Below are positions 1 to 18,348 of a stretch of 64,000 nucleotides of DNA, piece by piece. The notes under the pieces are model-generated. The model did not search any database. It had not been told where the DNA came from and was given only the letters and a program-made list of their open reading frames with translations. The translations under genes and the position numbers were made by a program. The first letter of the stretch is position 1. The number at the start of each line of letters is the position of its first letter. This stretch comes from an uncultured delta proteobacterium. GTDB lineage: Bacteria > Desulfobacterota > Binatia > UBA9968. The DNA is taken from assembly GCA_963804165.1 (NCBI GenBank), contig CAWDPO010000003.1, positions 1-64,000 on the forward strand, written 5' to 3'.

Positions 1-3000
1 AGCTCACCGACGGATATCCAGCCCGTGCTCGACGCCGTCGCAGAAAGCGCTGCACGTTTATGTGATTCCCATGATGCTCAAATTTATCGAGTCGAGGGTG
101 ACTTGGAGCGAAAAGTGGCGAGCTACGGGCCGATCTCGCCCGTCTTTGCAGTCGGGCAAACCCGGCCGATCAGGCGCGGTTCTACTAGCGGTCGCGCGAT
201 ACTCGACCGGAAAACGATTCATGTCCGTGACATCGCGGTAGAGGCGGAGACAGAGTTTCCGGAATCTATGGCTCGTCAGCAACCACCAAGCGGCGTTCGC
301 ACGATACTCGCGACGCCGTTGCTTCGCGAAGGCTTGGCCATCGGGGTCATTCATATTCGCCGAAGAGAGGTCCGGCCATTCTCCGATAAACAAATCAAAT
401 TGTTGGAGACCTTCGCCCACCAAGCCGTGATCGCAATCGAGAACGTGCGCTTGTTCAAGGAGATCGAGGAGCGCAATGCGGAACTGCGCGAAGCCCTGGA
501 GCATCAGACGGCGACATCAGAGGTGCTCGGCATCATCAGCCGGTCGCCGACCGACGTGCAGCCGGTCCTCGACGCTATCGTCGAGAGCGCGGCCAAGGTT
601 TGCGGGATTGATGACGTAGTGCTGCGACTTCGCGAGGGAGACGACATGTTGCCGCGCGCCCATTTTGGTCCCATCCCATTTGGCCGTGTCGAAATCAGTA
701 TTGACGAGCCGCAGTTTCGCTGGGTGCGCGAGCATGGAGCGCTTCACGTTCCCGACGCCCGTGCGCAGAACGAATTCACGATGATAAGCGCGCGAACGTT
801 CTTAATCGTCCCACTTCACCAACAAGAAGAACTCATCGGGATACTGGTTGCGCGTCGCATCGAGGTCCGTCCGTTCACGCCGGCGCAGATCAAGCTATTA
901 GAAACCTTCGCCGATCAAGCCGTCATCGCCATTGAGAACGTCCGGCTGTTCCAAGAGCTCAAGGAATCATTAGAGCAGCAGACCGCGACCAGTGAAATTT
1001 TGGGGGTCATTGCCAGTTCGCCCACAGATATCCAGCCGGTGCTCGATGTCGTTGCCGAAAATGCGGCCAAGCTTTGCGACGCTAGAGATGCGATCATTCA
1101 CCGCCGAGAGGATGGTTTTGCTTACCCAGTGGCACGCTTTGGTCCGCTCGGCTTTACGAGGCCTGAGGGCGAACATTTCCTGCCTAGCAGAGGGGATCCC
1201 CCGGGTCGAGCAATGATAGACGGTAAAACGATTCATGTTCATGATATCGTTTCGGAACTCGACACCGAATTTCCCGAATCGAGATCCCATCAAAAGATTA
1301 GCGGTTCACGCACGATCGTAGCCACGCCTTTACTTCGCGAACGTGTGTCCATTGGCTCGATCATGATCCGGCGAACCGAGGTTCGCCCATTTTCCGACAA
1401 GCAGATGAAGTTGCTGGAAACGTTTGCCAGCCAAGCGGTTATTGCGATTGAGAACGTTCGCCTGTTCACCGAATTGGAGAAGCGCAATGCAGAACTGCGA
1501 GAGGCGCTCGAACATCAGACGGCAACATCGGAAGTGCTCGGCATCATCAGCCGCTCGCCCACAGACGTGCAGCCGGTGCTCGACGCGATCGTGGAGAGCG
1601 CAGCGCGGGTTTGTGGAATCGATGACCTAGTGCTGCGGCTTCGTGAGGGAAATGTGATGGTCGCGCGAGCTCATGTTGGTTCCATACCGATACCTTCTAG
1701 CCGCGTCGAAATGAGTATCGATGATACGCGGTTTCGGTGGTTGCGCGAGCGAGGGACCTTGCACATTCCCGACCGCCGCGAGCAGGATATCATTCCAAGC
1801 GTGGGTTCCGTTAGCGAGTGGCGCAGCTGGCTAGGTGTTCCACTTCGGCAGCAGGGGGAACTGATTGGGGACTCTTCGCACACGTCGCATCGAAGCGCGG
1901 CCTTTTACTCCACCGCAAATCAAACTGGTTGAAACCTTCGCCGATCAGGCAGTCATAGCCATCGAGAACGTTCGGCTCTTTAAACGAGTTAAAGGAGTCG
2001 TTGGAACAGCAGACTGCCACGAGTGAGATCTTAGGCGTCATCGCCAGTTCGCCGACGGATATTCAGCCAGTGCTAGACGCAGTTGCCGAAAACGCCGCGC
2101 GCCTGTGTGATGCGAACGACGCTTTGATTAATCGCATCGATGGTGATTCCTTGAAGCAGGCGGCTCATTATGGACCGCTGCTAGCGAGGTTGGGTTCAGG
2201 TCCACCCGCATTCGACCGCGGCTCTATAGCCGCGCGAGCCATAATTGACCGGAAAACTATTTACATTCATGACCTATGCAACGGAACCAGAGGATGACCT
2301 GCCGGCAGCTTTCGCCAGACGTGTCGGTGTTCGGACTGTGGTTGCCACGCCGCTGCTGCGCGAGGGAATCCGCTCGGGACGATCCAGATCCGCCGACTAG
2401 AGGTCCGTCCCTTCACAGACAGACAAATCAAACTACTCGAAACTTTCGCCGATCAAGCAGTGATTGCCATCGAGAACGTGCGTCTCTTCCGTGAACTTGG
2501 CGAGCGCAACGCTGAATTGCGTGAAGCGCTGGAGCATCAGACGGCAACGGCCGAGGTGCTCGGTATCATCAGCCGCTCGCCGACGGATGTGCAGCCCGTG
2601 CTCGACGCCATAGTTGAGAGCGCGGCGCGGGTTTGTGGGATTGAATACCTAACGCTGCGCCTACGCGAAGGGTCCATGCTTGTTCCGCGGGCTCATTTCG
2701 GTTCTATGCCCACCGCCCGTGCTGAGGTTAGCATTGACGAGCCGTGGTTTCGCTGGATACGTGACCATGGCACGCTCCACGTTAGCGACGCCCGTGCCGC
2801 GCAGGACGATTTCCCGACGTTGGGGTACCGCTGGCAATTCCGCACCTTCCTGGCCGTTCCCCTTAATCAGAAGGGGGAATTCATTGGCGGGCTGATCGCA
2901 CGTCGCACGGAGGTGCGCCCCTTCACCCCGGCGCAGATTAAACTCCTTGAAAGCTTTGCCGACCAGGCCGTTATCGCCATCGAGAACGTCCGGCTATTCC

Positions 3001-4779
3001 AGGAACTCAAAGAGTCGTTGGAGCAGCAGACGGCGACTAGCGAGATCTTGGGCGTCATCGCCAGCTCGCCGACGGATATTCAGCCGGTGCTGGAGGCCGT
3101 TGCGGGAAGCGCCGCACGGCTGTGCGATGCAACCGATGCGCATATCCGATTGGTCGATGGCGATTCACTTCGATCTGGCCGCTTCTTGCGGCGCAATATT
3201 GCCGCCCCCGGAATACATACCTATCGATCGACAGCGATTATCCGGCAGAGCTTTACTGAACCGGGAAACAATTCACGTCCATGATATGGCCACGGACGCC
3301 GAAACTGAATTTCCGGAAAACAAAGCTCTCCAGGAACGAACCGGGACTCGGACTGTTATCAGCACACCCTTGCTTCGAGAGGGTGCTGGGCTAGGCGTAA
3401 TTGTAATCCGTCGCACGGAAGTTCGTCCCTTCACCGAAAAACAAATCGCCCTTCTTAAGACCTTCGCCGATCAAGCGGTCATCGCGATTGAAAACGTACG
3501 CTTGTTCCAGGAACTGCAGGCGCGCACGCAAGAACTGGTGCAATCCGTTGGGGAGCTCAAAGCCCTCGGCGAAGTCAGCCAGGTAGTCAGCTCGACTTTG
3601 GACCTCGAAGCCGTGCTGACGAGAATCGTTTCCCACGCGGTCCAGCTCAGCGGTACCGACGGTGGAGCCATTTACGAATACGACGAGTCATCCGAAGAGT
3701 TTCTGCTCCGTGCCACGGATCACATGGAAGATGAACTCATCAACGCCCTTCGCGCCAATCCGCCGCGACTGGGCGACGGAGTAGTCGGTCGGGCGACCGG
3801 CAGCCGGGAGCCGGTGCAGGTTCCCAATATCCTCGAAGAGCGTGGTTACGCCCCGCGCATGCGTGAGTTGCTGGCGCGTTTTGGGTTTCGTGCCAGCCTG
3901 GCGGTCCCCTTGCTGCGTGAGGACCGCATTGTTGGAGCTTTGGTAGTGCGGCGAAAATCGACCGGGGAGTTTCGTCCCGAAGTAGTCGAGCTTATGAAAA
4001 CCTTTGCCACCCAATCAGTATTGGCCATCCAGAACGCCCGGCTGTTTCGTGAGATCGAGGACAAGAGCCGGCAGATCGAAGCCGCTAACCGGCACAAGTC
4101 GGAGTTTCTCGCCAACATGTCCCATGAACTTAGAACCCCGCTCAATGCGATTATCGGGTTCTCTGAAGTTTTGCAGGAGAGACTCTTTGGCGAGCTAAAC
4201 GAGAAGCAGGCCGAGTACACCGACGACATTCTCACCTCCGGCCGCCATCTCTTATCTCTCATCAACGAGATCCTCGATCTGTCCAAGGTCGAAGCCGGGC
4301 GCATGGAATTAGAAGTCACTATCTTTGATCTCCCCCTGGCCATCGACAACGCCCGCACGTTTGTGAGAGAGCGGGCCACCAAGCACGGTATTAATCTAGA
4401 CGTTACCATCGACGAGTGTCTTGGCGATTTCCAAGGCGACGAGCGCAAGATCAAACAGATTCTACTGAATCTCCTTTCCAACGCGGTGAAGTTCACGCCT
4501 GAAGGAGGACGGATCGGAATCCACGCCAAGAAGGTCGATGGTGCTGCGGAGATCTCGGTCAGCGATACGGGCATCGGTATCTCGCCAGAGGACCAGGAAA
4601 GGATTTTCGAGGAATTTCGGCAGGTGGGAGGCGACTACGCACATAAGACAGAAGGAACCGGGCTCGGCTTAACCTTGGCCAAGAAGTTCGTCGAGCTGCA
4701 TGGCGGAAAAATCTGGGTTGAGAGCGAGTTAGGCAAGGGCAGTAGGTTTACTTTTACCCTCCCGGTGCAATCAGCGTAA
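1..4779 (+). CDS. Multi-GAF sensor histidine kinase (at least 8 GAF domains + HisKA + HATPase_c); begins upstream of the window and is split by frameshifts near 1870-1980, 2280-2370 and 3170
   Basis: ORFs 25-1932, 2001-2297, 2460-3284 and 2947-4779 all carry the repeated SPTD(I/V)QPVLD...[15 protein letters not shown] unit. The C-terminus has the H-box [16 protein letters not shown], the N-box [14 protein letters not shown] and the G-boxes DTGIGI and GTGLGL. Confidence 0.9.
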
Positions 4780-4834
4780 AGGGTTATAGGGAACCAGTGA
4801 GAAATAGAATCGCCCAGAGCTTGAAGGAATAAAC

Positions 4835-5230
4835 ATGGCCGGCGAGCTGATCCTCATCATCGAAGACAACGAGAAGAACCGAAAGCTCGTCCGCGACGTG
4901 CTCCAGGTTAAAGGTTATAGGACCAAAGAGAGCGAGACAGCCGAAGAGGGACTTAAGCTCGCTATAGAGAAATCTCCTGACCTCATTCTCATGGACATCC
5001 AGCTCCCCGGGATGGACGGAATTACCGCGCTCAAGCATCTAAGGACCGACCCAGAAACGCAAAGCATCCCTGTTATTGCGATCACGGCGTCCGCCATGAC
5101 GTACAACCGCGTGACAATGGCGGCGGAAGGCTTCGACGGTTATCAGACCAAGCCGATCAGCGTGAAGGACTTTCTTGGCGAGGTACAAAGAGTCCTCGAA
5201 TCACATAGCACCAGGAACACGGTATTATAA
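4835..5230 (+). CDS. Single-domain response regulator (CheY/DivK-like receiver)
   Basis: ILIIEDN, LILMDIQLPGMDG, IAITA and TKP receiver motifs; directly downstream of the kinase. Confidence 0.93.
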   Translation: MAGELILIIEDNEKNRKLVRDVLQVKGYRTKESETAEEGLKLAIEKSPDLILMDIQLPGMDGITALKHLRTDPETQSIPVIAITASAMTYNRVTMAAEGFDGYQTKPISVKDFLGEVQRVLESHSTRNTVL

Positions 5231-5331
5231 CAGAGCCGCAGCATACAGCGTTGAAACTGGCAAATAGCGGCGACTTGTTGTGAGCGCGGCTGCGGGGATT
5301 TATCTAGGAATAGACACGCTCATGCGGCCTG

Positions 5332-5351
5332 ACTTTGCCACAACTTTGCCA
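5332..5351. repeat. Direct repeat doublet ACTTTGCCA-N2-ACTTTGCCA (11-bp period), resembling an integrase arm-type site
   Basis: Copies at 5332-5340 and 5343-5351, at the left edge of the terminase module. Confidence 0.6.
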
Positions 5352-5386
5352 GAACCATTTGCTCGAATCGTAGCGGGCAACGACTT

Positions 5387-6016
5387 TTATCGCCGATCAA
5401 AGTCGTATCGTTTTACCTCGGCTCGTTGCTGGAACTGCGCCTGGCGCTGCGGTTTGAGCACAGGGCGCAAGATTTCCTGCAATGCCTCCTCCGACAATCG
5501 AGCACCGTGGTACACCGCCGCGACTGCCGGATAGCAGTCCATCACGCGCCGCAGCATGTTTCCAAATAGATCGCCCTGCGGGTCGGTCCCGGGCAGGTGA
5601 ACGGGTCCTGCGCTCGCGTTGCGCATCAACCGCAGGGCCTCGGAGTTCAGAAAGTCTCCGGCGGTGCGCTGGCCCAGGTCCGCGAAGTTCGCGCTCACGA
5701 CGTGTAACGCCAACGAGAGGTCAACTTGATGGTCGGCGAGGCGCGGCAATGCGAGAATCACATTCGACAACTCAGTCAAGCCGCGACTGCCCGCGACCTC
5801 GACTTCGGTTATCCCGCCGTCCGTTTGAAATATCCTCCAGTTGCCGTGCTCGGGGTTGGGGCTCAGGCCGTATTTTTGAACCGCTTCCGCTTTACGCTCC
5901 GCACGTTCACTACGGACTTCCATGAATTTCTCGCGATAGAGTTTCAAGTTGCCGTTGCAGCGTCGCAGCGCCGCCTCGCCATCAATGTTCCACTGAACTC
6001 GGGTGGGATCATTCAT
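5387..6016 (-). CDS. Hypothetical protein downstream of terL
   Basis: 209-aa ORF with a good RBS (AAGGAGG), co-oriented with terL; no motif recognised. Confidence 0.65.
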   Translation of the reverse strand: MNDPTRVQWNIDGEAALRRCNGNLKLYREKFMEVRSERAERKAEAVQKYGLSPNPEHGNWRIFQTDGGITEVEVAGSRGLTELSNVILALPRLADHQVDLSLALHVVSANFADLGQRTAGDFLNSEALRLMRNASAGPVHLPGTDPQGDLFGNMLRRVMDCYPAVAAVYHGARLSEEALQEILRPVLKPQRQAQFQQRAEVKRYDFDRR

Positions 6017-6062
6017 AAATGCCTCCTTGTCTCGCTCATTTCATTATTTCATACTCCTTTAG

Positions 6063-7571
6063 CTACCAATCGAAGTCGCGCCGAAACAAACTCCCGGAAT
6101 CCCAAGCCGCGGCGATACTGCCGCCGTGAGGCTCGTCATCACGCTGATCGCCCCAGTCCCGTTCTCGCGATATTAAGCGCTCACCGACAAGCGAGATACC
6201 CTTTGTGTCGACCCACCCTTGCTGCAAGAGGCTCGTAAGTCGCGCCGCCGCGGTGCTGAAATCGTCGTGCTCGTTGGCCACGTGATCGATGCGCGAACCT
6301 TTCCACACCAGGGACAGAAATTGATTTTGCAGCTTGTCGTTATCGAGCAAGACCACTTGGCCGCTGTTTAACCGCGGCCCAAAACTCTCATAGCATTGGT
6401 GAGTAGTGAGATCGGACAATCGGCAGCCGATGCCGTGCTGCCCGAACGCGCTGGTGAAAGTGTTAAAAGCAAACCGATCCAAGGTAAGCGCGGAAACGTG
6501 GTAGCGCTTCAAGATCTCGGAGAAGAACTTGACCGCCTTGAGAGGATCGAACGGTGCGGACGCCTGCTGATCCTGGATCAGATCGGCGATAACACGCGAC
6601 TCCTGATCCAAGTGACCTATGCACAGCACGGAATCGTCGTTGCTGCCGTCCGACATGTCACAAGCCGCTGCGTAGTTGACGCCCTCGACCGGGTACCGCA
6701 CCTTGACGCCCACGGGGATCGAGTTGAGAATCGACTCGGCGGCGAACGCAGCGCCCTGAGGCTGTCCACCGACGTTCTCGTGCAGACGGCGGAAGAGATG
6801 ACCGGGCAGGCGCAAGCGCTGCTGCTCGACGTATTCGTTGAATCCGTCGACGAAGACGAGCGAGGGGTTGGCGCGTTCAACGCCCGTTGGCTTGCTGGCA
6901 AAGTCAGGATCGGTGCAATGATCATTCGCGTACCAGGAAAAGTAATACCGGCGATCAGTACCAGCCTTGCCGGACTGCACTAGATCAAACATGGGAACGC
7001 CGGGACGCCGAATCAAAGTGTCATAGGATTCGAAAAACACGAGCGCGTCCTGCCGGTGCGGATCCAACTGCAGTCCCTCAAGGAGGGCGTAGTCGCGCTG
7101 AGTGTGGATCTCATTGCATCCGAGGAACAGAAACGACTTGCCGTGCTGCCCTGAGGTGTCACGCCCGGAGATGATGCGCAGGAACCCGTTGCCGTCGCGC
7201 CGCAGGACCTCGTTCTTCTTAATCAGTAAACGCCTGTTCAGCTCCGGGTTGACGCGGATCAACTTTTTGACTAAATCGAGGCACTCCCCGGCCTGCTCGA
7301 TGTCGAAACTGACGACCAAGCAGTCGTTGCCGAGCGGAGTTTTCCAGGCGATCAATCGGTGCGCCGCCGCGAACAACATGTCAGCGGTCTTCCAGTTCTT
7401 CTTGCCACGCCCGGTCAATGCTTGGTTGTAGCGCGGGCGCCCGTCCGGGTCGGTGGTGTCGACGATCTCCGTGAGAATCTTTCGTCTGTACGGCTCGACG
7501 ACGTCGAGCAACGGCCTCTTGTCGATCCACCGGAGCGAGGAAAGAAAATCGAGGATGGGGACTTGTCGCAT
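6063..7571 (-). CDS. Phage terminase large subunit (Terminase_1-like ATPase + RNase H-like nuclease)
   Basis: Walker A-like GRGKKNWKT, EQA motif, Walker B-like FLGCNEIH, ANPSL linker, and nuclease acidic residues in AACDMS...DDSV...HDDF; 502 aa. Confidence 0.85.
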   Translation of the reverse strand: MRQVPILDFLSSLRWIDKRPLLDVVEPYRRKILTEIVDTTDPDGRPRYNQALTGRGKKNWKTADMLFAAAHRLIAWKTPLGNDCLVVSFDIEQAGECLDLVKKLIRVNPELNRRLLIKKNEVLRRDGNGFLRIISGRDTSGQHGKSFLFLGCNEIHTQRDYALLEGLQLDPHRQDALVFFESYDTLIRRPGVPMFDLVQSGKAGTDRRYYFSWYANDHCTDPDFASKPTGVERANPSLVFVDGFNEYVEQQRLRLPGHLFRRLHENVGGQPQGAAFAAESILNSIPVGVKVRYPVEGVNYAAACDMSDGSNDDSVLCIGHLDQESRVIADLIQDQQASAPFDPLKAVKFFSEILKRYHVSALTLDRFAFNTFTSAFGQHGIGCRLSDLTTHQCYESFGPRLNSGQVVLLDNDKLQNQFLSLVWKGSRIDHVANEHDDFSTAAARLTSLLQQGWVDTKGISLVGERLISRERDWGDQRDDEPHGGSIAAAWDSGSLFRRDFDW

Positions 7572-7763
7572 TCAACTGCCCTCGGCGGCGCGCTCGGGCG
7601 CGATCGGCAGCTTGCCTCTGATCCGGATCATGCCCTCGCGGAGGCTCAACCTAGCGAGGGTGGCTTGGTTGATTCCCAGTTTCCAAGCCGTGTCCGCGAG
7701 TTGGATCTTATCGGCGCCGCTGATCCTGACCTGCAAGAGCGTGTCGAAGCGTTTCGTGCGCAT
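7572..7763 (-). CDS. Small putative DNA-binding protein (ribbon-helix-helix/CopG-like)
   Basis: RBS AGGAGA before the ATG at 7763; LLQVRIS strand followed by two helices; its TGA abuts the terL ATG (TGAATG). Confidence 0.5.
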   Translation of the reverse strand: MRTKRFDTLLQVRISGADKIQLADTAWKLGINQATLARLSLREGMIRIRGKLPIAPERAAEGS

Positions 7764-7778
7764 GGGTTCTCCTAAAAG

Positions 7779-7837
7779 AAAAAGGCGCAAAGAGGAGAAA
7801 CGTCGCCGTCGACGAGTCTGCCCTCTGCGCCTTTTTT
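7779..7837 (-). terminator. Long hairpin with U-tract (intrinsic terminator/attenuator) just upstream of the small gene-terL unit
   Basis: Minus strand: AAAAAAGGCGCAGAGG...CGTCG-ACGG-CGACG...CCTCTTTGCGCCTTTTTCTTTT, followed directly by AGGAGA. Confidence 0.6.
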
Positions 7838-7899
7838 GAAACCCGCTTAACTAACTGCGCTCGACACTACAGCATAGCGCCGAGAAAGAAAACCCGAAT

Positions 7900-8178
7900 C
7901 TATTTCTCGATTGCGTCGAGTCTGGCGACAAACGCGACAACGCCGACTCTATCCATCAGTTTTTTCGCCCTGCGCAAAACGAAACCGTCCATCCTGCAGT
8001 GCGGCGAGCAGTACCGGCCATGTTTTCCTTTTGGCGATCTCTTCGCCACGCCATCGCAGAACGGCGACGCGCATTTGCATGGCTGGTTCTGCGTTAACGC
8101 AGCGCCGCGCGACTTTTGAGGATCGGCTGGACTGTTTTCCATGCCCGTCTCAATTGGTGCGTTAACGCTTGTCGTCAT
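7900..8178 (-). CDS. Small Cys-rich (zinc-finger-like) protein
   Basis: CKCASPFC...YCSPHC; ATG at 8178 preceded by GAGGGTGA. Confidence 0.5.
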   Translation of the reverse strand: MTTSVNAPIETGMENSPADPQKSRGAALTQNQPCKCASPFCDGVAKRSPKGKHGRYCSPHCRMDGFVLRRAKKLMDRVGVVAFVARLDAIEK

Positions 8179-8642
8179 TGTTATCACCCTCGTTACCGCT
8201 GCCCTGATCGTTCGCCGCATCGGTTTTAGGCTCGCGCTCCCACGGCCACAGGTCGGCGTCCTTGGCCACGCGCTTCAAACCCAAGTCCTCAGAGTCCTCG
8301 TCAATCCGTCGGCTATTGTCTGCCTTTGCTGGACCACGGACAGGATCGTTTTCTTGCGCGAGTTAATCAAACTCGGCTGCCCGAGAATCCAGTTGTCGAT
8401 TGAGTCCAGCATGATCTTGGACCGCGCCGCCAGCTCGATCAGCGTTGCCTGCGCCGTCGAGATCGAGTCCTCGCCGCCCAAGTCCCGGATCAGATCGGCT
8501 TTCCACTTCCGCAGCGCGACGCCTACAGAGGATCTCCCGTCTATGGCGCGTGACCCGAGATCGATCAGCTCGCGACGCAGCGTGTAGAGCCCCGTCTTGC
8601 GATACTCCCGAGGGCTTTCTGTTTAGGTTCTGCGCCCATCAT
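8162..8642 (-). CDS. Putative terminase small subunit-like protein (two frameshifts, near 8613 and 8290)
   Basis: Joined frames read MMGAEPKQKA/PREYRKTGLYTLRRELIDLGSRAIDGRSSVGVALRKWKADLIRDLGGEDSISTAQATLIELAARSKIMLDSIDNWIL.../DLGLKRVAK. KTGLY resembles the KHGLY motif of TerS proteins; helical protein upstream of terL. Confidence 0.5.
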
Positions 8643-8669
8643 GCGCGCCTCGCGGACACAGACTGCATA

Positions 8670-8830
8670 GGTAGCAGGGCGGTAGCAACCGGACACAAGC
8701 CGCAGAACTCGTTGGGATATTTTCCATGACGCAGTGACGGTAACTGTAGCAGCGGCTGCTTTGAATTGTCGCATCGGCGGCTTCTCGGCCACAGGCAGCT
8801 TGGGCTGCTACCTGCTACCGCCTTGCTACC
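8670..8830. repeat. Symmetric site: GGTAGCA x2 (8670, 8681) facing TGCTACC x3 (8806, 8813, 8824), with central palindrome AGCAGC-G-GCTGCT (8748-8760)
   Basis: The 18-bp arms GGTAGCAGGGCGGTAGCA and TGCTACCGCCTTGCTACC are inverted copies with one mismatch; read directly from the sequence. Confidence 0.75.
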
Positions 8831-8979
8831 GGAATGAGCCGGAACGGGGCTAAACAGGGACGGTGAGTTGCGGTGTAAAGCTAGGCAATTCGGCTCTCTC
8901 TTACGGCTGGGTCCATACCATTCAGGCTTGAACGAGAATGCTTGAACTGCGGCGCCGTGAGCGGCTGCTCGTAATTGGC

Positions 8980-9037
8980 ATTCTCACAGTAATTCTCACC
9001 CAAGAGTAACGGGCCGGTTAGAACGTATCTACCGGCC
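8980..9037. repeat. ATTCTCAC doublet (8980, 8992) followed by a GGCCGGT...ACCGGCC hairpin
   Basis: 8-bp direct repeat with 12-bp period; hairpin at 9012-9037. Confidence 0.45.
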
Positions 9038-9060
9038 TGTTGCATTTTGAGCCGAAAGAA

Positions 9061-9157
9061 ACCCGCCGTGATGCAACGCTACAATGCACACCGGCTACGG
9101 AAGGTGGAATCACCAACAAGGTTTGGGAATTGACGGACCTTGTGCATTTATTACTTG
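9061..9157 (+). pseudogene. C-terminal remnant of an IS1-like DDE transposase
   Basis: ATLQCTPATEGGITNKVWELTDLV resembles the common C-terminal motif (H.TL..TPAMEAGITD.VW...DL) of IS1-like transposases. Confidence 0.5.
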
Positions 9158-9548
9158 TAGAAAGGGCGACTCTATATGCCAGTAGCATTCACACCCGTTC
9201 ACAAGCCATGCGGGCATTTACGCAACCTCAACGATCTTACCAATGTTGAGCTTCGATCAGGAAAAGTGCTGCCGTTGTTTGGAAATAGAAATCGGATATT
9301 GTCCAGAAAGAGCCACGGATGGCAGGTAATATGTGGCAAACGAAACGATCAAAATTCAAGCTGAACCACTACCGCTTCTTCGATCATCTAGTCGACATCG
9401 ATTCTGATTGATAGGGCGGCGGTTGCCATGGTGGCAGACTTAGCCGGGAACGAACTTAATCGGTGCCAGCGTTGTGTGTAAGAACACCATACAGACGCGG
9501 TGTCGTTATTATTGAAACACGATTCGCGTATCGACCACGGAGGATCGC

Positions 9549-10825
9549 GTGAGGCGGATTATTTCTTTGAGTAGCATAGCTTCGTTGATTCAACTGGCCT
9601 TCTCGGCGCCGCCCCTGGCGCGGACCGCGGATAGGGGCACGGTTATTCCTCCTGCAATTCGATCTGGGCTGGAAATGGACTCGAAAATCGATAACGACAC
9701 CGCGAAGCGAATTGTAGCGACATTTCAGAACGCCGGAAGATCATTAATTTTAGAACGAACACGTGGACAAGCAGACATAGACTTGTACCGAAAATCGGCT
9801 CAAGCGGTCGTTTATGTGACTGACGCTGAAGAGAAATCTTCTGGAAGCGGTGCGCTTATCGATGCTAACGGCCACGTTCTTACAAACTGGCACGTTGTGA
9901 GAGATCATCCAAGGGTTTTTGTTGTGTTAAAGCCAAGGGATAGCACAGAGCTGAAGAAGGAGCTTATTTTCGTAGCCATTGTTGAGAAGACTGACGAGGT
10001 CGCGGATTTGGCGCTCTTGAGGATTGTCACGCCTCCAAATTCTTTAAAATATTTGGAGCTTGGGGATGGCGATGCGATTGCCGTCGGACAGGATGTCCAT
10101 GCCATTGGTCACCCCGTGCGCCTAACGTGGACTTACACCAAGGGAATCGTAAGTCAGGTTAGGGACGACTATGAGTGGTATTACGGCGATCGTCGGCTAC
10201 ACAAAGCCAAAGTTATCCAGACGCAGACACCCATTAACCCGGGAAATTCCGGGGGGCCGCTGCTTGATGATGCAGGAAGGCTAGTCGGAATTAACTCGTT
10301 TGGTTCAACACAGGCACAAAGTATAAATTTTGCTGTCTCCGTCGATACGGTCCAAGAATTTCTGCGTAGTTCCGAGCTGAAACGAAAGGCTCCCCAAGTT
10401 CAAGAATCAGCAAATGCCAAGGGAGAAACGCGCTGCCCGGACGCATACGATACGACGGGCCGAGGGTGGAAGGAGATTATAGGGTGCTATAGAAGTGCTA
10501 TTTCACCTCCACCCCGATCTATGGTTGGTCTTCGCGGTACCAAATAAACCAGCAGTCTATGGTGCCACGAGCACGTTGCGTCCAGGTGTCATTGATACCG
10601 TTATTTTGAGTCCGGACCAGAAATGGGAGAACTTAACATTTCTCTATGATGTCGACTGTAATGGAACAATCGATCTTACTGGCCATAAAGCCAAGGGAAG
10701 CGAGGGCATCAGCTAGCTTTAGCTTGCCCCAAAATCCTATGCGAACGGCCGCTGTAACTAAGGAACTCGACAAGGCCTTTAAATCACGGAAAATTCCCTA
10801 CCAAAATCTCAAAGTGTGTCAATAA
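9549..10825 (+). CDS. Exported trypsin-like serine protease (S1C) with Cys-containing C-terminal domain; frameshifts near 10515 and 10715
   Basis: Triad motifs LTNWHVV, DLALL and INPGNSGGPL; N-terminal signal-like sequence; continues via ORF 10495-10716 to ...NLKVCQ* at 10825. Confidence 0.88.
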
Positions 10826-10829
10826 ATCA

Positions 10830-13800
10830 TTGTTGCTTGTTGCAATTCAGAAGAGATTTTGCGTGACGGGATGTTTTGCACATCTACGAAGCTTGACGAG
10901 CGCACAACCTCTCGTTGCCGTCTTCAGTTTTTTAATTATTAACGGTTGCGCCTTTGGAAACCCACCTGTCGAAACTGGTAACAGACTAACAATTCCCGCT
11001 CACGTTGAAGATCTCTATAACGAGGGTGCTGCTGCGGTTCAGAGAGGCGATTTACAAGGGGCGCATCAAAAATATGAGGCGGCATTAACTTACGCTAGGG
11101 AAGAGCATAACCTCGCAGTGGAAGCGTTGACGCTAGCGAAGATCGCCAGCCATGGACTTCCGGATGGGTAATAACACGCGCGCGATCGAAACTTTCGATC
11201 GCGCCTTGGCTATTGGGCTAAATCTTCTTGTCGGGGCCTCGCAGCAAGAAAAGCAGATGATACTTTCGTATCGAGCGAGAGGGGCTCTATCAAAAAGCGG
11301 ATGCTCAGCAGAGACTAGGACAGTCCGAAGCTGCGGTAAAAAGCTACCGTGATGCTTCCGTCGATTTTGAGGCGTTAGAAAAAAAAGACTTGGCGGCAGT
11401 GGCGTTATTGATTGCTGCGAACATATTACACCAGAAGCTAAAAGCTCAGAATGAGGCAATTAAAGAATTTATCCGGGCTTTTTTCTTTCTTCCTTGCGGT
11501 GGGGGACAATACAAATGCCACGTGGGCACGGGTGGGTCTCGCATGGTCATACGGGGACTGAGGAGCGATTTGATGAGGCTACGTACAATTTTTTCTGATG
11601 TGTGTAAAGGACGCGGGGCAAACTTGGCTGATTCATGCGGAACTTGTGATGAACGGGCATCTTGGATTTAGGGCGAGTTTTAGAAGCACAAGGTAGTTTC
11701 GAACGCAAGCGTTAGGGCAATACGAGGCAATTCTTCAGCGTTGTTCGCAGCACTCAGGGTACTGGTCTAACCGCATGGGAGGCGAATGTATTACGGCTTT
11801 AATGGGGAGATATCGTATTGGTATTTGAGCCGGTATGAAGAGGCAATTGAACATCTGCAGGGAGCCGGCTAGTGAAGTATCACCAGATGGAGAAAGTACC
11901 GAGACTGAGGCTGAGAGTTTTCAGTGAGCTTGCGAGAAGTCCTTTTTTGGGTTGGTGACGCGAGAACGTGCAAATTCAGGAATACAAACGCGCCTTAGAA
12001 CTATACAAACAAACGGGCAACTTACCGAAAGCAGGTGGAGGTATCTGGCGGCCTTAGGGGAATCCGGTTGGTTGAGTAGATTCAGGCGTGGCAAGTTGAT
12101 AGCTCAACTTTGCATTCAAGTAACAACCAAACGAACTAGCATCTTCATTTCGAGTCAATCCTGTTGTGCCGTGGAATGCGGAAACCGAGAGCGCGTTTCG
12201 AACAATGGCAGACGATGTTATCCTATGTCGAACCAACGATTCTCAATGCTGCGGGTGCATTGCTATCAAAAATACGGGCGCGTTCGCTTCAATATGGAAA
12301 AGTTCGATTTAGCCATGTCCGCATTAACATTTGCTGTGTTTTACCACTATAACTTACAGGAAAGCCGTGACAGGTTATTGGATAGTGCGAAGGACTGCTT
12401 TTTTCTCGCCGAGGCATATGACAAAAAAAAGAATTGAACAACGCTCTGCGAAATTTTCGATCCTACTCGGGCAAATTGCTCAAGTGGTCCGATCATCAGA
12501 GATCCACTGGGTATATACAGGCCTTGCGAGAACACAGGCTGATTTAGGCGATATAGACAACGCTCTCCAATATAACTAGAACTGCTCTCCAGGCCCGCGA
12601 GAATATTCGCGAATCGCAGGGAACTGAAGAGATGAAAATCGGCGTATCTGGGGAATCGTTATATGTCTATCGTAGCTTTGAGAATCTTCTTCTCGACCGC
12701 TACACGGGGACCGGGGCGACCGGAGATTTAGACGAAGCTTTTCAAGTTAACGAGCGACTGCGGGCCCGTTCATTTTTGGAAAACCTAACCAAGTCACGAG
12801 CGACAAAACTTGGAGGTGACTTAGCATGGTTGACCTGAAAGGAAATAGAGATAGAGCATCAAATTGCCGAAATTCACCATCAGCTTTTGTCTTTCAAGTC
12901 AGACAGTAAGAATGAGTCACTCCTTTTTGACAAGCTCGAAAATCTGAGAAAGGACTGGCGCGATTCCCAGAACAAGGCTGCCAAGGAAAATTCAAAGTAT
13001 GGGCAAATTGTTCGTCCAAACCCAGTGACCTTGAGTGAGGTTCAAAACGTCTTGGATACGGATACGATTTTACTTGAGTACTCCGTTTCATTTGAAGGAT
13101 CGGTCTTGTGGGCAATCACTAAAGAACAGGTCAAAGCTTATAAACTGCCCGGCCAAGAAACATTGGTAGTCCTGGATAAATACCTAAAGACACTTCGTCA
13201 GCCTTTGATGACTTCAGCCGAGATTTTTGAACATGTAGCGCTCGGTCAAAATTTGTATCAAAAACTTTTAGCGCCGGCAGAAACACTTATCTTTGGGAAA
13301 AAGCGCGTTATCATTGCCCCCGACGGTGCGCTCTATTATCTGCCGTTCGAGGCATTGATTGCCTCGGATAAAAGTAAAGGTGCGAAAAGAACCCAGAAGC
13401 TTTCAGAAATCTCATACCTGATCAAAAAATTCGAGGTAGTTTATATTCCTTCTGCCTCGATTCTAGTCGAACAACGGAAAGATCGGCGTGAGCCGAGAAA
13501 CACCCCGTCACTTCCCTTGCTAGCCTTTGGTGATCCTATTTATGAAACTAAGAGCTCACGCCTCGCTGCGGAATCGTCATCTGAAGGGGCATTGCCCGCT
13601 AATATTTCATTACGTGGACTTAATCTCAATCCTCTGGAGTTTTCCGGCCAGGAAGTAAAACGAATTGCAAATATTTGGGGTATCTCGTCTAGATTCCGAT
13701 GAGATTAATCTGAGAAACCGGGCTTCAGTAACACGACTACAAGAACTAGATCTCTCTAAATATCGCATTCTCCACTTTGCAACACACGCAGTGGCGGGAG

Positions 13801-14249
13801 ATGAAATTGGCTTCCTAACACAACCAGCTTTGATTTTGTCCCAAGTGGACAGCCCAGGGAAAAACAATGGCTTATTGCAGTTCAGCGATATTCTACAACT
13901 TAAGCTAAACGCTGACCTGGTGGTGCTATCAGCATGTGACACAGGGTTAGGCAAGCTCCGAGAAGGCGAAGGGATTGTAGGACTGACCCGAGCGTTTCTT
14001 TATGCAGGCGCTGCATCAACAGTCGCCAGTCTTTGGCCAGTAGAGGATCAGTCAACTAGCCTCCTCATGGAAAGGTTTTATCGACGGCTCAAGCAGGGAC
14101 AGAGCAAGGCGGAGGCGTTGCGACGAGCAAAATTGGAGTCACTTCAATCTATCGTTTCACTGAAGGCGACAGGGGAGCGCGAATCACTTGCTTCACCGTT
14201 CTACTGGGCACCCTTTGTGCTCGTTGGCGACTGGGCACCAATGCGGTAG
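10830..14249 (+). CDS. TPR-CHAT (caspase-like cysteine protease) protein, heavily frameshifted in this sequence
   Basis: C-terminal ILHFATHA and LVVLSACDTGLG dyad motifs, VIIAPDGALYYLPFEAL, SLWPVED and PFYWAPFVLVG; ERLRARSFLE linker; TPR-like fragments; lipobox-like FLIINGC near the N-terminus. Confidence 0.85.
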
Positions 14250-14358
14250 CACTGAAACGACTGCAGGATCTACTCAGCCTGAACGGGAATTCTAGAAACC
14301 TGGACCAGTTTGTGCCTCGAAATTGCACCGTTTTACTTCTTTGACTCGGAGTCGGTTG

Positions 14359-15093
14359 ATGGCAATAGTCAGTGCTTATTTTGATGACAGCGGAACTCAC
14401 GACGATTCACTGGCTGTAGTCGTCGCTGGGTACCTCCTTTCGACAGAAAAGTCAGCGGGTTTCACTCGCGAATGGGGCGATTTGCTGGTTGAAGCAGGCC
14501 TAACGCATTGGCACCAAGTCAATTTCGCGCACAGCGTGAGGGAGTATGCCGGATGGATGGAGGAAAAGCGCGTTAAGTTCATGAGGCGGGCGACCGAAAT
14601 CATCAACGATACCGTAATTGGTGGAGTCGTGTGTGGAGTCAACGCCGCAGCCTTCAAGGAGTTATCATCAGAATTTCCGGCGCCTCCAGACACGCCTTAT
14701 CCTTTCTGCGCAATGGTGTGTTTCAAACATATCGAGAAATGGGCGGCCGAGTATCCCCACTCCGATCCCATCGATTGCATTTTCGAATCTGGCACAAAGG
14801 GGCATGGTGAAATTGCGAAAATGGTCGAAGAACTCATGTCTGATGAAGATGGTGAAAGACTTAAGTTTCGGCTCGGCGCGGTCAGATTCGAAGGCAAGAA
14901 AGAAACCCTGCCTGTCCAAGCTGCGGATATCTTAGCGTACGAGTTTTACCGCGAAGCACAGAATGGCGGGCACGTCACTGACGAAATCCGACAAATCCGC
15001 AAAAGCCTGCAAGGGCTCAGATCAAAGGTGATTGGCGGAACGTTCTACAGTCGCTCTACCCTTGAACAATACATTGCTAATTGGAAACCGTAA
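14359..15093 (+). CDS. DUF3800 family protein (predicted RNase H-like fold)
   Basis: N-terminal SAYFDDSGTH and C-terminal VQAADILAYE motifs. Confidence 0.75.
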   Translation: MAIVSAYFDDSGTHDDSLAVVVAGYLLSTEKSAGFTREWGDLLVEAGLTHWHQVNFAHSVREYAGWMEEKRVKFMRRATEIINDTVIGGVVCGVNAAAFKELSSEFPAPPDTPYPFCAMVCFKHIEKWAAEYPHSDPIDCIFESGTKGHGEIAKMVEELMSDEDGERLKFRLGAVRFEGKKETLPVQAADILAYEFYREAQNGGHVTDEIRQIRKSLQGLRSKVIGGTFYSRSTLEQYIANWKP

Positions 15094-15145
15094 GTTACGG
15101 CATGCCCGGCGAGATAGGTCAGTTTGATCTAAAAGACCGTGGGGG

Positions 15146-15754
15146 CTACTTTTTTTCCAAAAAAAGCATGCCTTTTTGAGTATCGATATCCATGCGGAAG
15201 TTGCTCAAGAAATTCAGCCCCAACAGTCCGGCAACTTGCGGGTCGACCAGGGCATCGTGAACCGCCGCGGGGAGATTGCGGATTTCCATTCCACCGACCG
15301 TGATCGATTCTAGGGTGGTTACCGGCGCCTGGATCAATCCATTGGCGGTCTGAAACGGCAGCGTCTTCGGATTCGGTCCCACGTCGATGGCGAGTTCGCG
15401 CGCGAGCGCGTTCGAGATCAAAGTATAACTGGCGCCAGTATCGACTACGAATTTTGCCGACCTTTTATTATTCAAAGTCGCCTGGATGATTGCTACCTGG
15501 CCATGCTTTTCCAAAGGAATCGATGCTTTCTTCGGGGGCAGTTTGATTTCCGGCTCGGCCACTCGCGGGTTTTCTTGGGCCTGGACACGGTTCACGTTGC
15601 CCCTTTGCTTGGGCGGCACGTTGTGGAGATTGTCGGTGATATGTAACACACCGCTGTCGTCGACCCAGCGGTAGTATTCCGCGGCCGGGAGGGGATTCGA
15701 GGGCAGGCAGAAAAGGCAAATCAGTAACAAGAGGTGCCTGAGGAGGTTCTTCAC
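15146..15754 (-). CDS. Exported retropepsin-like aspartyl protease with N-terminal DUF4124
   Basis: Signal peptide, YRWVDDSGVLHITD, FVVDTGASYTLIS and GLLGLNFL. Confidence 0.85.
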   Translation of the reverse strand: MKNLLRHLLLLICLFCLPSNPLPAAEYYRWVDDSGVLHITDNLHNVPPKQRGNVNRVQAQENPRVAEPEIKLPPKKASIPLEKHGQVAIIQATLNNKRSAKFVVDTGASYTLISNALARELAIDVGPNPKTLPFQTANGLIQAPVTTLESITVGGMEIRNLPAAVHDALVDPQVAGLLGLNFLSNFRMDIDTQKGMLFLEKK

Positions 15755-15900
15755 GATGACGGTACCTTATCATGTTCATCGCAACGGCGAAACAAACTAT
15801 TTCACAAGGATTTTGCGGATTCCGCATGCTTTACAAGGCTATATCGTTATGCTAAACGTGAATGAACTAAAGGAAGGAAAGAGACAAAAGAGCGGAGAAT

Positions 15901-16170
15901 ATGGGAATTGCTGAACCTCAGAAACGACAAACCATTGAGCAGTTCAGAATTCATCAGACGGACACCGGCTCTGCAGAAGTGCAGGTTGCGCTTCTAAGCC
16001 AGCGCATCGACCATCTCACCGAACACTTCAAGGTCCATGTAAAGGATCATCATTCTCGTCGTGGTCTCCTGAAGCTAGTAGGGCAGAGGAGGAGGCTGCT
16101 GGATTATCTTCGAGATTGTGATTTTGAGAGATACCATCACCTTATCCAACGGCTTGGAATACGCAAGTAG
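15901..16170 (+). CDS. rpsO: 30S ribosomal protein S15
   Basis: [12 protein letters not shown]...HLTEH...[23 protein letters not shown]. Confidence 0.98.
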
Positions 16171-16239
16171 CTGTTCCCGCCCCGTTGCCCGTCGTTTCGA
16201 TACCTCCGTCAGCCACGTCTCCCGCCAGAGGATTTCTAT

Positions 16240-18348
16240 ATGATTAAGAAAGTTGAATTGGATTTTCATGGTCGTCCCTTATCCATTGAGGTTGGGCGAA
16301 TGGCCAAGCAAGCGGACGGTGCTGCGCTGGTACGCTACGGTGAGACCGTAGTTTTGGTTACCGCAGTGGCCGCCAAAGATTTGAAATTGGATACCGATTT
16401 CTTTCCTCTAACCGTCGACTACCAAGAAAAAACCTTCGCCGCCGGAAAGATTCCCGGCGGTTTTTTTAAGAGGGAAGGTCGACCGTCGGAAAAAGAGATT
16501 TTGACCTGTCGTTTAATTGACCGGTCGATTCGACCGTTATTTACCGAAGGCCTGCGCTGCGAAACTCAAGTGATCGCCACCGTGCTTTCCGCCGACCGGG
16601 AGAACGACCCTGACGTAGTCGCTATGTTGGGCACTTCGATCGCGTTGCATGTGTCCGATATTCCGTTTAATGGACCGCTGGCCGGCGTGCGGATCGGCCG
16701 CATCGACGGCCAATGGGTCATGAATCCGACCCAGAGCCAACTTGAAGAAAGCGACGTGGATATCTTTCTCTCCGGCAGCCGGGACGCGATCGTGATGGTT
16801 GAAGGCGGCGCGCAGATCGTGCCCGAAGGTGAAATCCTGGAGGCGCTGTTCGCGGGTCACGAAGCCATTCAGCCGCTCATCCAAATTCAAGAGGAGATTC
16901 GCCGAGAAATCGGCAAACCAAAGAGGCACGTCCCGCTGGCGCATCTTGATGAAGGCGTCGCCCGCCGGGTTGAAGATCTGGCGCTTACGAAGCTCAAACA
17001 AGCTCTGGAGATCCCGGAAAAACTGGAGCGCTACAAACGAATCGCCGAAGTTAAGGGCGAAGTCGTACCTCAAGCGCTGGCGGAGTTTCCAGATAAGCAA
17101 AAAGATATCAAAGGCGCGTTCGAAGAGCTCAAGCGCAACGTCTTTCGCGGACTAGTCATTCAAAAAGAGCGGCGCATCGATGGGCGCGGCTTGAAAGACA
17201 TCCGGCCGATTACCTGCGAAGTTGAGGTGCTGCCGCGCACGCACGGTTCAGCGTTGTTTACGCGTGGCGAAACCCAGGCACTGGTGGTCACGACGTTGGG
17301 CACCACTTCGGATGAGCAGCGGGTTGATGCGCTGATCGGCGAGCATTTCAAGAAGTTCATGTTACATTACAATTTTCCGCCGTTTAGCGTCGGAGAAGTC
17401 AAGTTTCTGCGCGGGCCCGGCCGGCGCGAGATCGGCCACGGCAATCTCGCCGAACGCGCGCTGGTGCCCGTGCTTCCTATGGAAGAGGGATTTCCGTACA
17501 CCATCCGCATCGTCTCGGAAATTCTCGAATCCAACGGCTCGACGTCCATGGCGACCGTATGTGGCGGATCGTTGTCGTTGATGGATGCCGGTGTGCCGGT
17601 GTCCGCGCCCGTGGCGGGTATCGCGATGGGCTTGATTAAGGAAGGTGAGCACGTTCGCGTGCTCTCCGACATTCTCGGCGACGAAGATTACCTGGGTGAC
17701 ATGGATTTCAAGGTCGCCGGGACGGCGGACGGCGTGACCTCGCTCCAAATGGATATAAAGATCAGCGGCGTGAACCGCGACATCATGCGTCAGGCGCTGC
17801 ATCAAGCAAAGGATGGCCGCCTGCACATTCTCAGCGCGATGAATGCGGCGCTGCCCGCCGCTCGTACGAACGTCTCCGGTCATGCGCCGCGCATCATCAC
17901 TTTAAAGGTAAAACCGGACAAGATCCGCGAGATCATTGGCCCGGGTGGAAAAGTCATTCGCGGTATCATCGAAGCGACCGGCGTCAAAATGGATGTCGAA
18001 GACGATGGTACGGTGACGATCGCGTCCGTCGACGAAGCCGCGTCGAGAAAAGCCGTTGAAATGGTGCAGCGGATCGCGGCTGAAGCCGAGATCGGAAGAA
18101 TCTATAAAGGGACCGTGCGCAAGATCGTCGAGTTCGGCGCTTTTGTCGAAATCCTTCCCGGCACGGACGGCTTGATTCACATTTCTCAGCTTGCCCCCGA
18201 GCGCGTGCGCAAAGTCAGCGACGTGCTTAAAGAAGGTGACGAAGTCATGGTTAAAGTCCTGGACATCGACAAGCAGGGCAAGATCCGGCTGAGCCGCAAA
18301 GAGGCGCTGCAAGAAACCGGCGACGGCCCGGAGAGTTCCGCGCGGTAG
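16240..18348 (+). CDS. pnp: Polyribonucleotide nucleotidyltransferase (PNPase)
   Basis: [26 protein letters not shown] and GDMDFKVAG motifs; KH and S1 domains; follows rpsO. Confidence 0.98.

Follow-up and report, generated by a model that had tools for sequence, protein, structure and literature searches.

A putative packaging and scaffold module of a capsid-less, terminase-carrying satellite-like island in an uncultured Binatia bacterium

Introduction

The described systems closest to the locus discussed here are satellites that depend on helper phages. In the SatelliteFinder study of de Sousa et al. (2023, PMC10085698), the core of a phage-inducible chromosomal island (PICI) consists of terS and genes for an integrase, a regulator, a primase-replicase and capsid morphogenesis, typically with no other structural genes; the capsid-forming PICIs (cfPICIs; PMC10085698, bioRxiv 10.1101/2022.09.08.507074) carry terL along with capsid, head-tail adaptor and connector genes. 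Here, we describe an element found in a stretch of 64,000 nucleotides (hereinafter, the window) from an uncultured delta proteobacterium of the Binatia (GenBank assembly GCA_963804165.1, denoted G000; 7.5 Mb in 46 contigs, 81% complete). Base 1 of the window is also base 1 of contig C3 (CAWDPO010000003.1), of which the window covers the initial 64 kb. The element spans about 5363-8935 and contains five minus-strand genes (5387-8642) that encode, in the order of reading, a TerS-like protein, a Cys-rich protein, a 63-aa protein, a large terminase (TerL) and a 209-aa protein (ORF209). We put at roughly one half the probability that this segment is the packaging and scaffold module of a capsid-less, terminase-carrying satellite-like island, stranded without integration and replication genes.

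The comparison with the known satellites cuts both ways. The wider family of this TerL resembles the PICIs in that its loci contain an integrase, a primase/replicase and a small-terminase-like gene, no lysis genes and, usually, no structural genes; moreover, a capsid-morphogenesis gene is part of the PICI core, and ORF209 would be its counterpart. However, the PICI core includes a small terminase and no large one, whereas these islands carry a full TerL, and the defining PICI components, integrase, regulator and primase, are missing from the window copy. With the cfPICIs, the element shares the presence of terL together with terS, but the capsid, adaptor and connector genes were not found in the window element or its nearest relatives. 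An island with terS and terL and without capsid genes thus fits neither the PICI nor the cfPICI definition. No description of capsid-less satellites carrying terL was found in full-text searches of the literature; the supplementary tables of SatelliteFinder could list such variants. Gene content, family memberships, synteny, boundaries and the purifying selection acting on the clade were all computed here, whereas the helper, the packaging and the scaffold role are inferred.

The TerL Family

The uninterrupted ORF at 6063-7571 (minus strand), correctly singled out in an earlier note made from the letters of the window alone, encodes a TerL-like large terminase of 502 aa that matches PHROG 9 (terminase large subunit) at E = 1.6e-14 and phrog_4914 at 1.7e-5. 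An N-terminal ATPase domain with KKNWKT and NE motifs and a C-terminal domain of the nuclease type are predicted. No Pfam, NCBIfam or PADLOC model matched the window TerL, and PF03354 is a precomputed match on five of 120 TerL relatives among the matches listed. The family profile detects the PDB entry 6z6d_A (E = 5e-4, over the ATPase domain), with RAKKNWKT aligned on ARKNGKT and DEIH on DETG; the entry is named only 'Terminase large subunit', and we take it to be the enzyme of phage HK97.

A word-index search yielded 205 relatives at E<=1e-3, mostly unnamed proteins from soil-type metagenomes. In the 24-row alignment (A1), the family P-loop reads GR[AG]KKN[WYFN]K[TS] (window residues 55-62). 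The Walker A motif of the window protein, G-R-G-K-K-N-W-K-T, keeps the Lys and the Thr, has Trp at the Gly site and so departs from the canonical GxxxxGK[ST]. D305, D365, D436 and D437, which by analogy would be the catalytic residues of the nuclease, are invariant in the same 24 rows, and the window TerL retains every family-invariant column.

With one genome scanned per species, 69 TerL loci were recovered, in which the best-segment identity to the window TerL is at most 53%, and that of near-full-length matches at most 49%. The recurring layout of the wider family is a tyrosine integrase, primase/helicase genes (Toprim/DUF7146, D5_N/DUF5906, AAA_25, PrimPol, DEAD helicase, DUF3987), a TerS-like gene and TerL, with a tRNA gene nearby in many loci. 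Among the 64 loci with at least 450 nt of upstream sequence, 47 have a TerS-like ORF, belonging to a single jackhmmer family, that ends no more than 1.5 kb upstream of TerL. Of 66 loci, 41 have a tyrosine integrase cluster at a distance of up to 10 kb (upstream in 32, downstream in 10, with one locus counted in both); of the 38 loci with at least 8 kb on each side, 29 do.

The genes downstream of TerL were surveyed through 114 plus-strand ORFs of at least 190 aa starting within 3.5 kb after TerL in 54 loci; the survey did not include the 10 of 67 loci with less than 2.5 kb of sequence after TerL, L072, or any ORFs that were shorter or on the minus strand. In these 54 loci, a portal match (phrog_145) was detected in three and a full major-capsid match in one; protease-type matches were detected in five loci, tail or connector matches in 16, and integrase matches in eight. 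Clustering of the neighboring genes places the portal cluster (c26) in four loci, so that a portal gene follows TerL in 3-4 of 54-57. In IMG/VR, the TerL family is represented in seven contigs, all 44-48% identical, and one of the three annotated contigs is a 14-kb sequence with an integrase, a primase, TerL, a portal, a MuF-like protein and a tape measure. The TerL family is, then, common to phage-like elements of very different completeness, most of them without recognizable head genes beside TerL. Because the wider family resides mostly in integrase/primase islands that lack recognizable head genes, satellite-like elements that carry a terminase and lack a capsid constitute a real class.

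Tail-type genes, such as those for the tape measure, Neck1 and the baseplate hub, follow TerL without a portal or capsid gene in many loci of the wider family (L009, L019, L022, L037, L039, L040, L050, L062). The first three of these are copies in a single genome (record OY969582.1). Such loci may represent a further kind of reduced element.

The NE Subclade

Ten of the 79 rows of the TerL alignment, the window protein among them, form a single branch with support of 100 and a long stem, in which the Walker B motif has Asn in place of Asp, a pattern explained by one state change; we refer to this branch as the NE subclade. The closest relatives of the window TerL, which are 59-82% identical to it, all possess the Walker-B Asn. 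In the window protein, the motif reads L-G-C-N-E and departs from the canonical hhhhDE, with the catalytic Glu154 retained. The substitution D153N is present in all 10 NE rows vs Asp in all 69 others, and 28 residues further on, T181E is equally exclusive (Glu in 10 of 10, Thr in 69 of 69). Altogether, the NE rows differ at 11 columns that are at least 90% uniform in the other 69, including P268G, G308D and G364L; the latter two adjoin acidic residues of the nuclease domain at positions where Gly is uniform in 67 of the 69 other rows. Given that the pairwise proportions of nonsynonymous differences (pN) within the clade are 0.14-0.31 vs 0.67-0.80 for synonymous differences (pS), the clade evolves under purifying selection. 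ATP hydrolysis and motor activity of these proteins are putative.

The sister group of the NE subclade consists of elements from Acidobacteriota, Nitrospirota and Gemmatimonadota, several of them with an integrase downstream of TerL, which in one locus (L006) stands beside a tRNA gene. Within the NE subclade, locus L075 has a TerL 76% identical to that of the window. The L075 element is about 14 kb long and encompasses an integrase fragment, a CHC2 primase, a helicase, an HTH_17 gene, a TerS-like gene, TerL and a protein that includes a protease domain, without any portal or capsid match.

More generally, the closest TerL relatives do not sit beside a portal gene, the observation by which the earlier note had proposed to judge its reading: none follows TerL in the NE relatives L075, L086, L077 and L076, for which 4.4, 2.6, 1.6 and 0.9 kb of sequence beyond TerL are available, respectively, or in the fully delimited island on contig C6 of the same genome that holds a paralogous copy. 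Capsid, head-tail adaptor and connector genes were likewise not found in the window element or its NE-clade relatives. The gene order is conserved: the succession of a TerS-like gene, TerL and an ORF209-type gene recurs in the clade, most clearly in L086 and L075. The 3.5-kb module as a unit was not found elsewhere, the contigs L076 and L074 being too short to tell.

ORF209

ORF209 (5387-6016, minus strand) is separated from TerL by 46 nt with AGGAGG. No match to it was found in Pfam, PHROG, NCBIfam, PADLOC or the PDB sequences; PDB searches with the profiles of ORF209 and of the TerS-like protein produced nothing meaningful, and in a search of the ESM Atlas with the homologue P0127, the only leads, to viral hypothetical proteins, were below the threshold (0.85). 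A family with 20 representatives at E<=1e-3 (16 at E<=1e-10), mostly of 190-240 aa, emerged from an exhaustive search of 1.84 billion proteins by HMMER; compared to this family, the window protein is full length (alignment A3), and the shared motifs are GLPRLxDHSID, AAGDFL and YPEVAxVYxG...ALRxxLWPLF.

The key to the likely role of this protein comes from L075, where TerL is followed by a gene for a 414-aa protein. The first 150 residues of the latter match head maturation protease families (phrog_976 at 6.8e-27, phrog_3894 at 1.8e-19), and its residues 315-407 match the C-terminal half of ORF209 (E = 1e-6); the ORF209 profile recovers the same C-terminus at 5.8e-10, as well as a stand-alone ORF downstream of TerL in L086 at 1.2e-16. 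For the C-terminal 225 residues of the 414-aa protein, 14 homologues were found, and 10 of them stand alone as proteins of 230-234 aa. The proteins encoded after TerL in L077 and in the C6 copy show weak links to the ORF209-type C-terminal region (1e-6, 0.002, 0.005). Prohead proteases fused or nested with a scaffold are familiar from phages Mu (I/Z), lambda (C/Nu3) and P2 (gpO). Because ORF209 is homologous to the C-terminal part of the L075 head-protease fusion, it is probably a protease-less scaffold-like or capsid-interior-targeting protein. The earlier note had terL followed by a 209-aa ORF of no assignable function, after which the element ends; the order holds, with a host cassette next, and the ORF itself has acquired a probable identity.

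A satellite protein that would work in a comparable way is known. According to Dearborn et al. (2017, PMC5644958), CpmB of SaPI1 is an internal scaffold and competes, for a capsid-protein site, with the scaffolding protein of the helper. ORF209 would be similar to CpmB, so characterized, in being a small satellite protein, with a C-terminal domain that it shares with the head-assembly protein of L075; the comparison is one of proposed roles and not of sequence or structure.

The Other Genes of the Element

The five minus-strand ORFs are tightly packed, as had been noted from the letters, with the stop codon of the 63-aa ORF touching the TerL start (TGAATG). None of the four ORFs other than TerL has a match at accepted thresholds in Pfam, PHROG, NCBIfam or PADLOC.

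The TerS-like gene (about 8162-8642) runs through three frames, with breaks near 8612-8625 and at 8288/8289. Residues 27-131 of the intact TerS-like protein of L075 correspond to 8610-8290 in one frame (46% identity, 5e-32), and residues 134-148 to 8284-8240 in a different one; upstream of 8610, the frame has a stop and no start codon, and an ATG-ATG lies at 8642-8637 in the third frame. A jackhmmer search started from the L075 protein matched window 8278-8622 at 1.7e-30. The TerS-like gene suggested to head the element is, accordingly, a homologue of the L075 gene, if not a single ORF in the assembly. The window fragment, the L075 and L074 proteins and the family representatives gave no sequence match in Pfam, PHROG, NCBIfam or PDB. 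A complex prediction for the L075-type TerL with the TerS-like protein scored 0.02, which is no answer and was not used either way.

A 224-nt contig from public run X2 is identical to window 8185-8407 save for one extra T after 8288, which removes the second break. Several unrelated genes of the window are also split in the assembly: an SDR gene (28148-28946) extends over two overlapping ORFs that cover profile positions 1-127 and 126-193, a CHAT protein gene (12887-14249) over two ORFs that cover positions 2-117 and 123-289, and a multi-GAF histidine kinase gene (1-4779) is in several pieces. Such splitting of single-domain genes suggests frequent assembly indel errors or, else, many pseudogenes. 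Since the X2 contig eliminates one break and the assembly splits unrelated genes, the breaks in the TerS-like gene may be assembly errors, and the gene is not a proven pseudogene. Overall, the window copy is largely intact, with full-length TerL and ORF209 and one frameshift of the TerS-like gene absent from the X2 contig.

The Cys-rich, Zn-ribbon-like ORF of 106 aa (7900-8220, minus strand), located between the TerS-like gene and TerL, is homologous to a 108-aa ORF in the same position in L076 (E = 1e-6; common C-x4-C ... YCS-x2-C) and has no family match in Pfam, PHROG or NCBIfam. Between it and the 63-aa ORF, a terminator-like hairpin followed by a T-run occupies 7779-7836 (minus strand); its 27-nt arms are 81% complementary, and its folding energy is -36.1 kcal/mol (z = -3.94; none of 200 shuffles as stable). 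The 63-aa ORF (7572-7763, minus strand; 63-72 aa depending on the start, 7763 or 7790) had been taken for a DNA-binding gene, for which the databases offer no support: no Pfam or PHROG family matched at E<=0.1, and the top match, RelB/DinJ (E = 0.038), does not reach the cut-off. The product may be of the ribbon-helix-helix type; tblastx detected no counterpart of this stretch in the other NE loci.

Just upstream of the TerS-like gene, five of the eight GGTAGCA heptamers of the window, three direct and two inverted, are clustered within 161 nt (8670-8830), and the Poisson probability of about 2e-11 indicates that the cluster is real. The heptamers are candidate binding sites, of the pac/cos kind or an operator; the motif was not at the equivalent place in the related loci checked.

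Other Terminase Loci in the Same Genome

Contig C6 harbors a second copy (L003 = G000:C6:206000-225999), with a TerL 69% identical to that of the window and a TAG in place of the Gln323 codon. The pS between the two genes is 0.72, which implies that the two copies were acquired separately; a recent duplication was considered as the origin of the C6 copy and is rejected by the same value. The C6 copy lies in a strain-specific island of 9.6 kb (L003 about 2260-11857), the flanks of which are adjacent in relatives. The TerS-like gene of this island, which lacks the N-terminal 70 residues, abuts the island edge beside htpX, and no integrase or primase was found within the delimited 9.6 kb. The C6 copy is a decayed remnant. 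As cargo, the island encodes a 219-aa coiled-coil ORF and several ORFs of no known family, including a 298-aa one with a phrog_16139 match.

A third terminase locus, on C42 (L123 = G000:C42:92000-111999), belongs to another TerL family; its TerL is split over two ORFs and accompanied by a CHC2-primase gene, and among 16 ORFs scanned there, no head-protein match was found beyond the TerL pieces. On C4 (L124 = G000:C4:50000-69999), there is a TerL-like fragment, with an integrase fragment about 5 kb away.

Boundaries and Genomic Setting

On the left, the element ends at a 31-nt motif (5332-5362, minus strand) that contains TGGCAAAGT twice. The motif has six copies at <=3 mismatches in the genome (C3, C21, three on C22, C30) and is present in four of 30 genus relatives; on C3 and C30, it lies just 3' of a gene for a response regulator from the GAF-kinase cassette family. 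As the motif is multi-copy and, on C30, adjoins a paralogous kinase/regulator cassette, it is part of the host cassette and lies outside the element. The match of short public-run contigs with different flanks is confined to this motif stretch. The repeats at 5332-5355, considered as an element terminus, are part of the motif and were rejected in that capacity. Of the phased repeats formerly seen at both ends, therefore, only the heptamer cluster stands as a feature of the element.

On the right, about 290 nt beyond the TerS-like gene, the element borders on the 3' remnant of nrdJ (8936-9057, plus strand), the gene for a class II ribonucleotide reductase (RNR), of which the last 13 codons and the stop (8936-8976) and the terminator (to about 9057) are left; the breakpoint is flanked by an 8-nt GCTTGAAC repeat. 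The remnant is single-copy in the genome. In genus relatives, nrdJ, which shows 87-89% conservation at the protein level, directly precedes the aspartyl-protease gene (window 15146-15754), followed by pnp. Neither nrdJ nor any other RNR large subunit (PF02867) was found in the 81%-complete assembly, nor were the genes that lie left of nrdJ in the relatives. Because RNR is essential, nrdJ is probably unassembled, and the chromosome region around it seems to be missing from the assembly. The remnant itself may be a displaced 3' end left after integration into nrdJ.

The placing of host or unrelated genes on either side of the element is thus accurate, with the qualification that the left flank, a multi-copy GAF sensor-kinase/regulator cassette, is cut short by the contig start 5.3 kb beyond the element. 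Between the nrdJ terminator and the aspartyl-protease gene lies a 6.1-kb low-GC insertion (9060-15140), with a GC content at third codon positions of 0.46-0.54 vs 0.64-0.83 in the other genes measured. It codes for a trypsin-like protease, a TPR protein, a DUF3800 protein and the CHAT protein noted above as divided between two ORFs. In two genus relatives, different insertions (3 kb and 12 kb) occupy this spot, which therefore is an insertion hot spot.

Twenty-four genomes of the same genus have no close homologue of the window TerL, and the only weak match is in genome G005 (E = 1.3e-5), which is included in the genus tallies; the element is, for this reason, considered strain-specific. No genus genome matched window 5192-15142 among the 150 matches listed.

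Profile scans of window 1-16000 bear out the reported absence of portal, capsid, integrase and replicase genes; they detected no phage structural matches at all there and, hence, no complete prophage. Neither a primase-replicase nor a regulator of the AlpA/MerR/Stl type is encoded between the TerS-like gene and the nrdJ remnant, and tblastx found no trace of the relatives' primases in 8600-16200; L075, by contrast, has both kinds of gene. Of the 21 tyrosine-recombinase (PF00589) matches in the genome, none is on contig C3; because only 5.3 kb of the contig lie on the far side of the element, the absence of an integrase is not provable. No tRNA gene was found in the window, and no Rfam family matched 4700-16500 at E<=1.

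Contigs from public sequencing runs cover the element in parts, with 8550-8817 and several other bins uncovered and the junction 8830-8936 outside the cover. No RNA run with a match to the element is listed among the public sequencing runs.

Discussion

The reading that we favor, at about even odds, is that the segment 5363-8935 is the packaging and scaffold module of a capsid-less, terminase-carrying satellite-like island, stranded without integration and replication genes. As the genes for these functions are missing beside it, the window copy is unlikely to be autonomous; it could represent either a recent remnant or a piece of a larger island, the far end of which is unassembled. For such an island, we infer a dependence on a helper phage that would supply the procapsids, that is, capsid protein and portal, and the tails. 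The TerS-like protein would bind the repeats near its own gene, and TerL would then cut the island DNA and pump it into the helper procapsids. ORF209 would enter or shape the helper procapsid via the C-terminal domain that it shares with the prohead protease fusion, an action that would resemble the competition of SaPI1 CpmB with the scaffold of the helper. The earlier proposal of a satellite type with its own packaging motor thus finds support at the level of the family, although the 3.5-kb unit is probably incomplete, given the about 14 kb of the related L075 element.

Several observations weigh against the satellite-module reading. The integration and replication genes are lacking beside the window copy (window 1-16000), and no helper is visible as a resident, neither an HK97-type capsid protein (PF05065) nor a portal (PF04860) having been found in the 81%-complete assembly. 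No joints indicative of circular or excised forms were seen in the public-run contigs that cover parts of the element, and the first break of the TerS-like gene (near 8612-8625) is covered by none of them. In the IMG/VR viral collection, a search with the family pattern found no NE-clade TerL, and single-protein scans with P0124 and P0145 found no ORF209-type gene. The ATPase motifs are unusual: in difference from 6z6d, the Gly of GK[ST] in the P-loop is replaced by Trp, Tyr, Phe or Asn across the entire TerL family, and the NE clade has, in addition, the Asn of Walker B and the later Glu, so that a TerL of this clade, such as that of the window with its Trp in the P-loop and NE in Walker B, is non-canonical at both sites. 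The name TerS follows from position and conserved pairing with TerL only, and the names scaffold and ribbon-helix-helix from position or one remote link. Finally, decay does occur in this genome, as witnessed by the C6 copy with its truncated TerS-like gene, TAG codon and lack of an integrase.

These observations lead to the most serious rival, which we regard as rather unlikely, yet live: a plain decay relic, that is, an eroding leftover of a prophage or a satellite with no present function, in which the intact ORFs would attest only to the recency of the loss. A deletion relic, raised as an option from the outset, is clearly what the C6 copy, truncated and with a nonsense codon, has become. 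For the window copy, the same outcome would fit the lack of adjacent integration and replication genes, the shifting frame of the TerS-like gene in the assembly, the split TerL of the third terminase locus on C42, and the location of the segment at a rearranged junction from which the body of nrdJ is missing. However, the window TerL retains all the family-invariant positions, ORF209 is full length, and the translational coupling and the ribosome-binding site are preserved; one of the frameshifts is contradicted by an independent contig, in an assembly that splits unrelated genes as well. Furthermore, portal and capsid genes are missing from the nearest relatives, too, so the ancestor was probably not a full prophage.

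A second alternative, to which we assign a low probability, is that the segment is a domesticated or interference module, where a terminase pair with a remodelled ATPase site and a scaffold mimic would act as a decoy defense against phage packaging or capsid assembly. Such a function could account for the fixation of D153N, T181E, G308D and G364L in the NE clade, yet under purifying selection, for the absence of integration and replication genes from both copies in the genome, and for the unrelated cargo of no known family in the C6 island. Against it, none of the five ORFs matches a defense model of PADLOC-DB 2.0 at E<=0.001; L075, with its primase, helicase and integrase fragment, shows that the clade does occur in the form of a mobile element; the 24 same-genus genomes without a close TerL homologue are a poor fit to a fixed host function; and the C6 copy is decaying.

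A more speculative version of the packaging scenario, which we consider similarly improbable, is that the NE modules are integrase-independent 'packaging islands'. The TerS/TerL pair, with TerL rebuilt at its active site (D153N with T181E), would start packaging in situ from the heptamers at the island edge and fill helper procapsids to which a scaffold mimic encoded by the island gives their shape. The module together with the neighboring chromosome would spread by a process akin to lateral transduction, and homologous recombination would fix them in recipients. Such a mode of transfer would account for the position of the TerS-like gene at the island edge, without integration and replication genes, in both copies.

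That the 3.5 kb constitute a complete, autonomous 'terminase-only' satellite, as the sharp boundaries (the host-cassette motif 5332-5362 and the nrdJ remnant at 8936) and the repeat cluster at the TerS end might suggest, appears very improbable, given that the segment has no gene able to integrate, excise or replicate it, that L075, the related full element, is several times longer, that no circular or joined form was seen in the public-run contigs, and that the unit was not found elsewhere, with L076 and L074 too short to tell.

With no mobility genes and a location at the start of a contig, the window is a poor type specimen, and its value is that of a pointer to the family and the subclade. 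If the satellite-module reading is correct, this widespread soil family of elements, which carry a terminase and lack capsid and portal genes, would represent a third strategy of molecular piracy, beside those of the PICIs, where TerS redirects the helper terminase, and of the cfPICIs, which bring the whole capsid kit. The NE subclade would then add a scaffold-like protein to a whole packaging enzyme. This subclade is, moreover, a natural experiment on the terminase motor, in which the Asp-to-Asn change in Walker B has been fixed together with a Thr-to-Glu change and is maintained under purifying selection.

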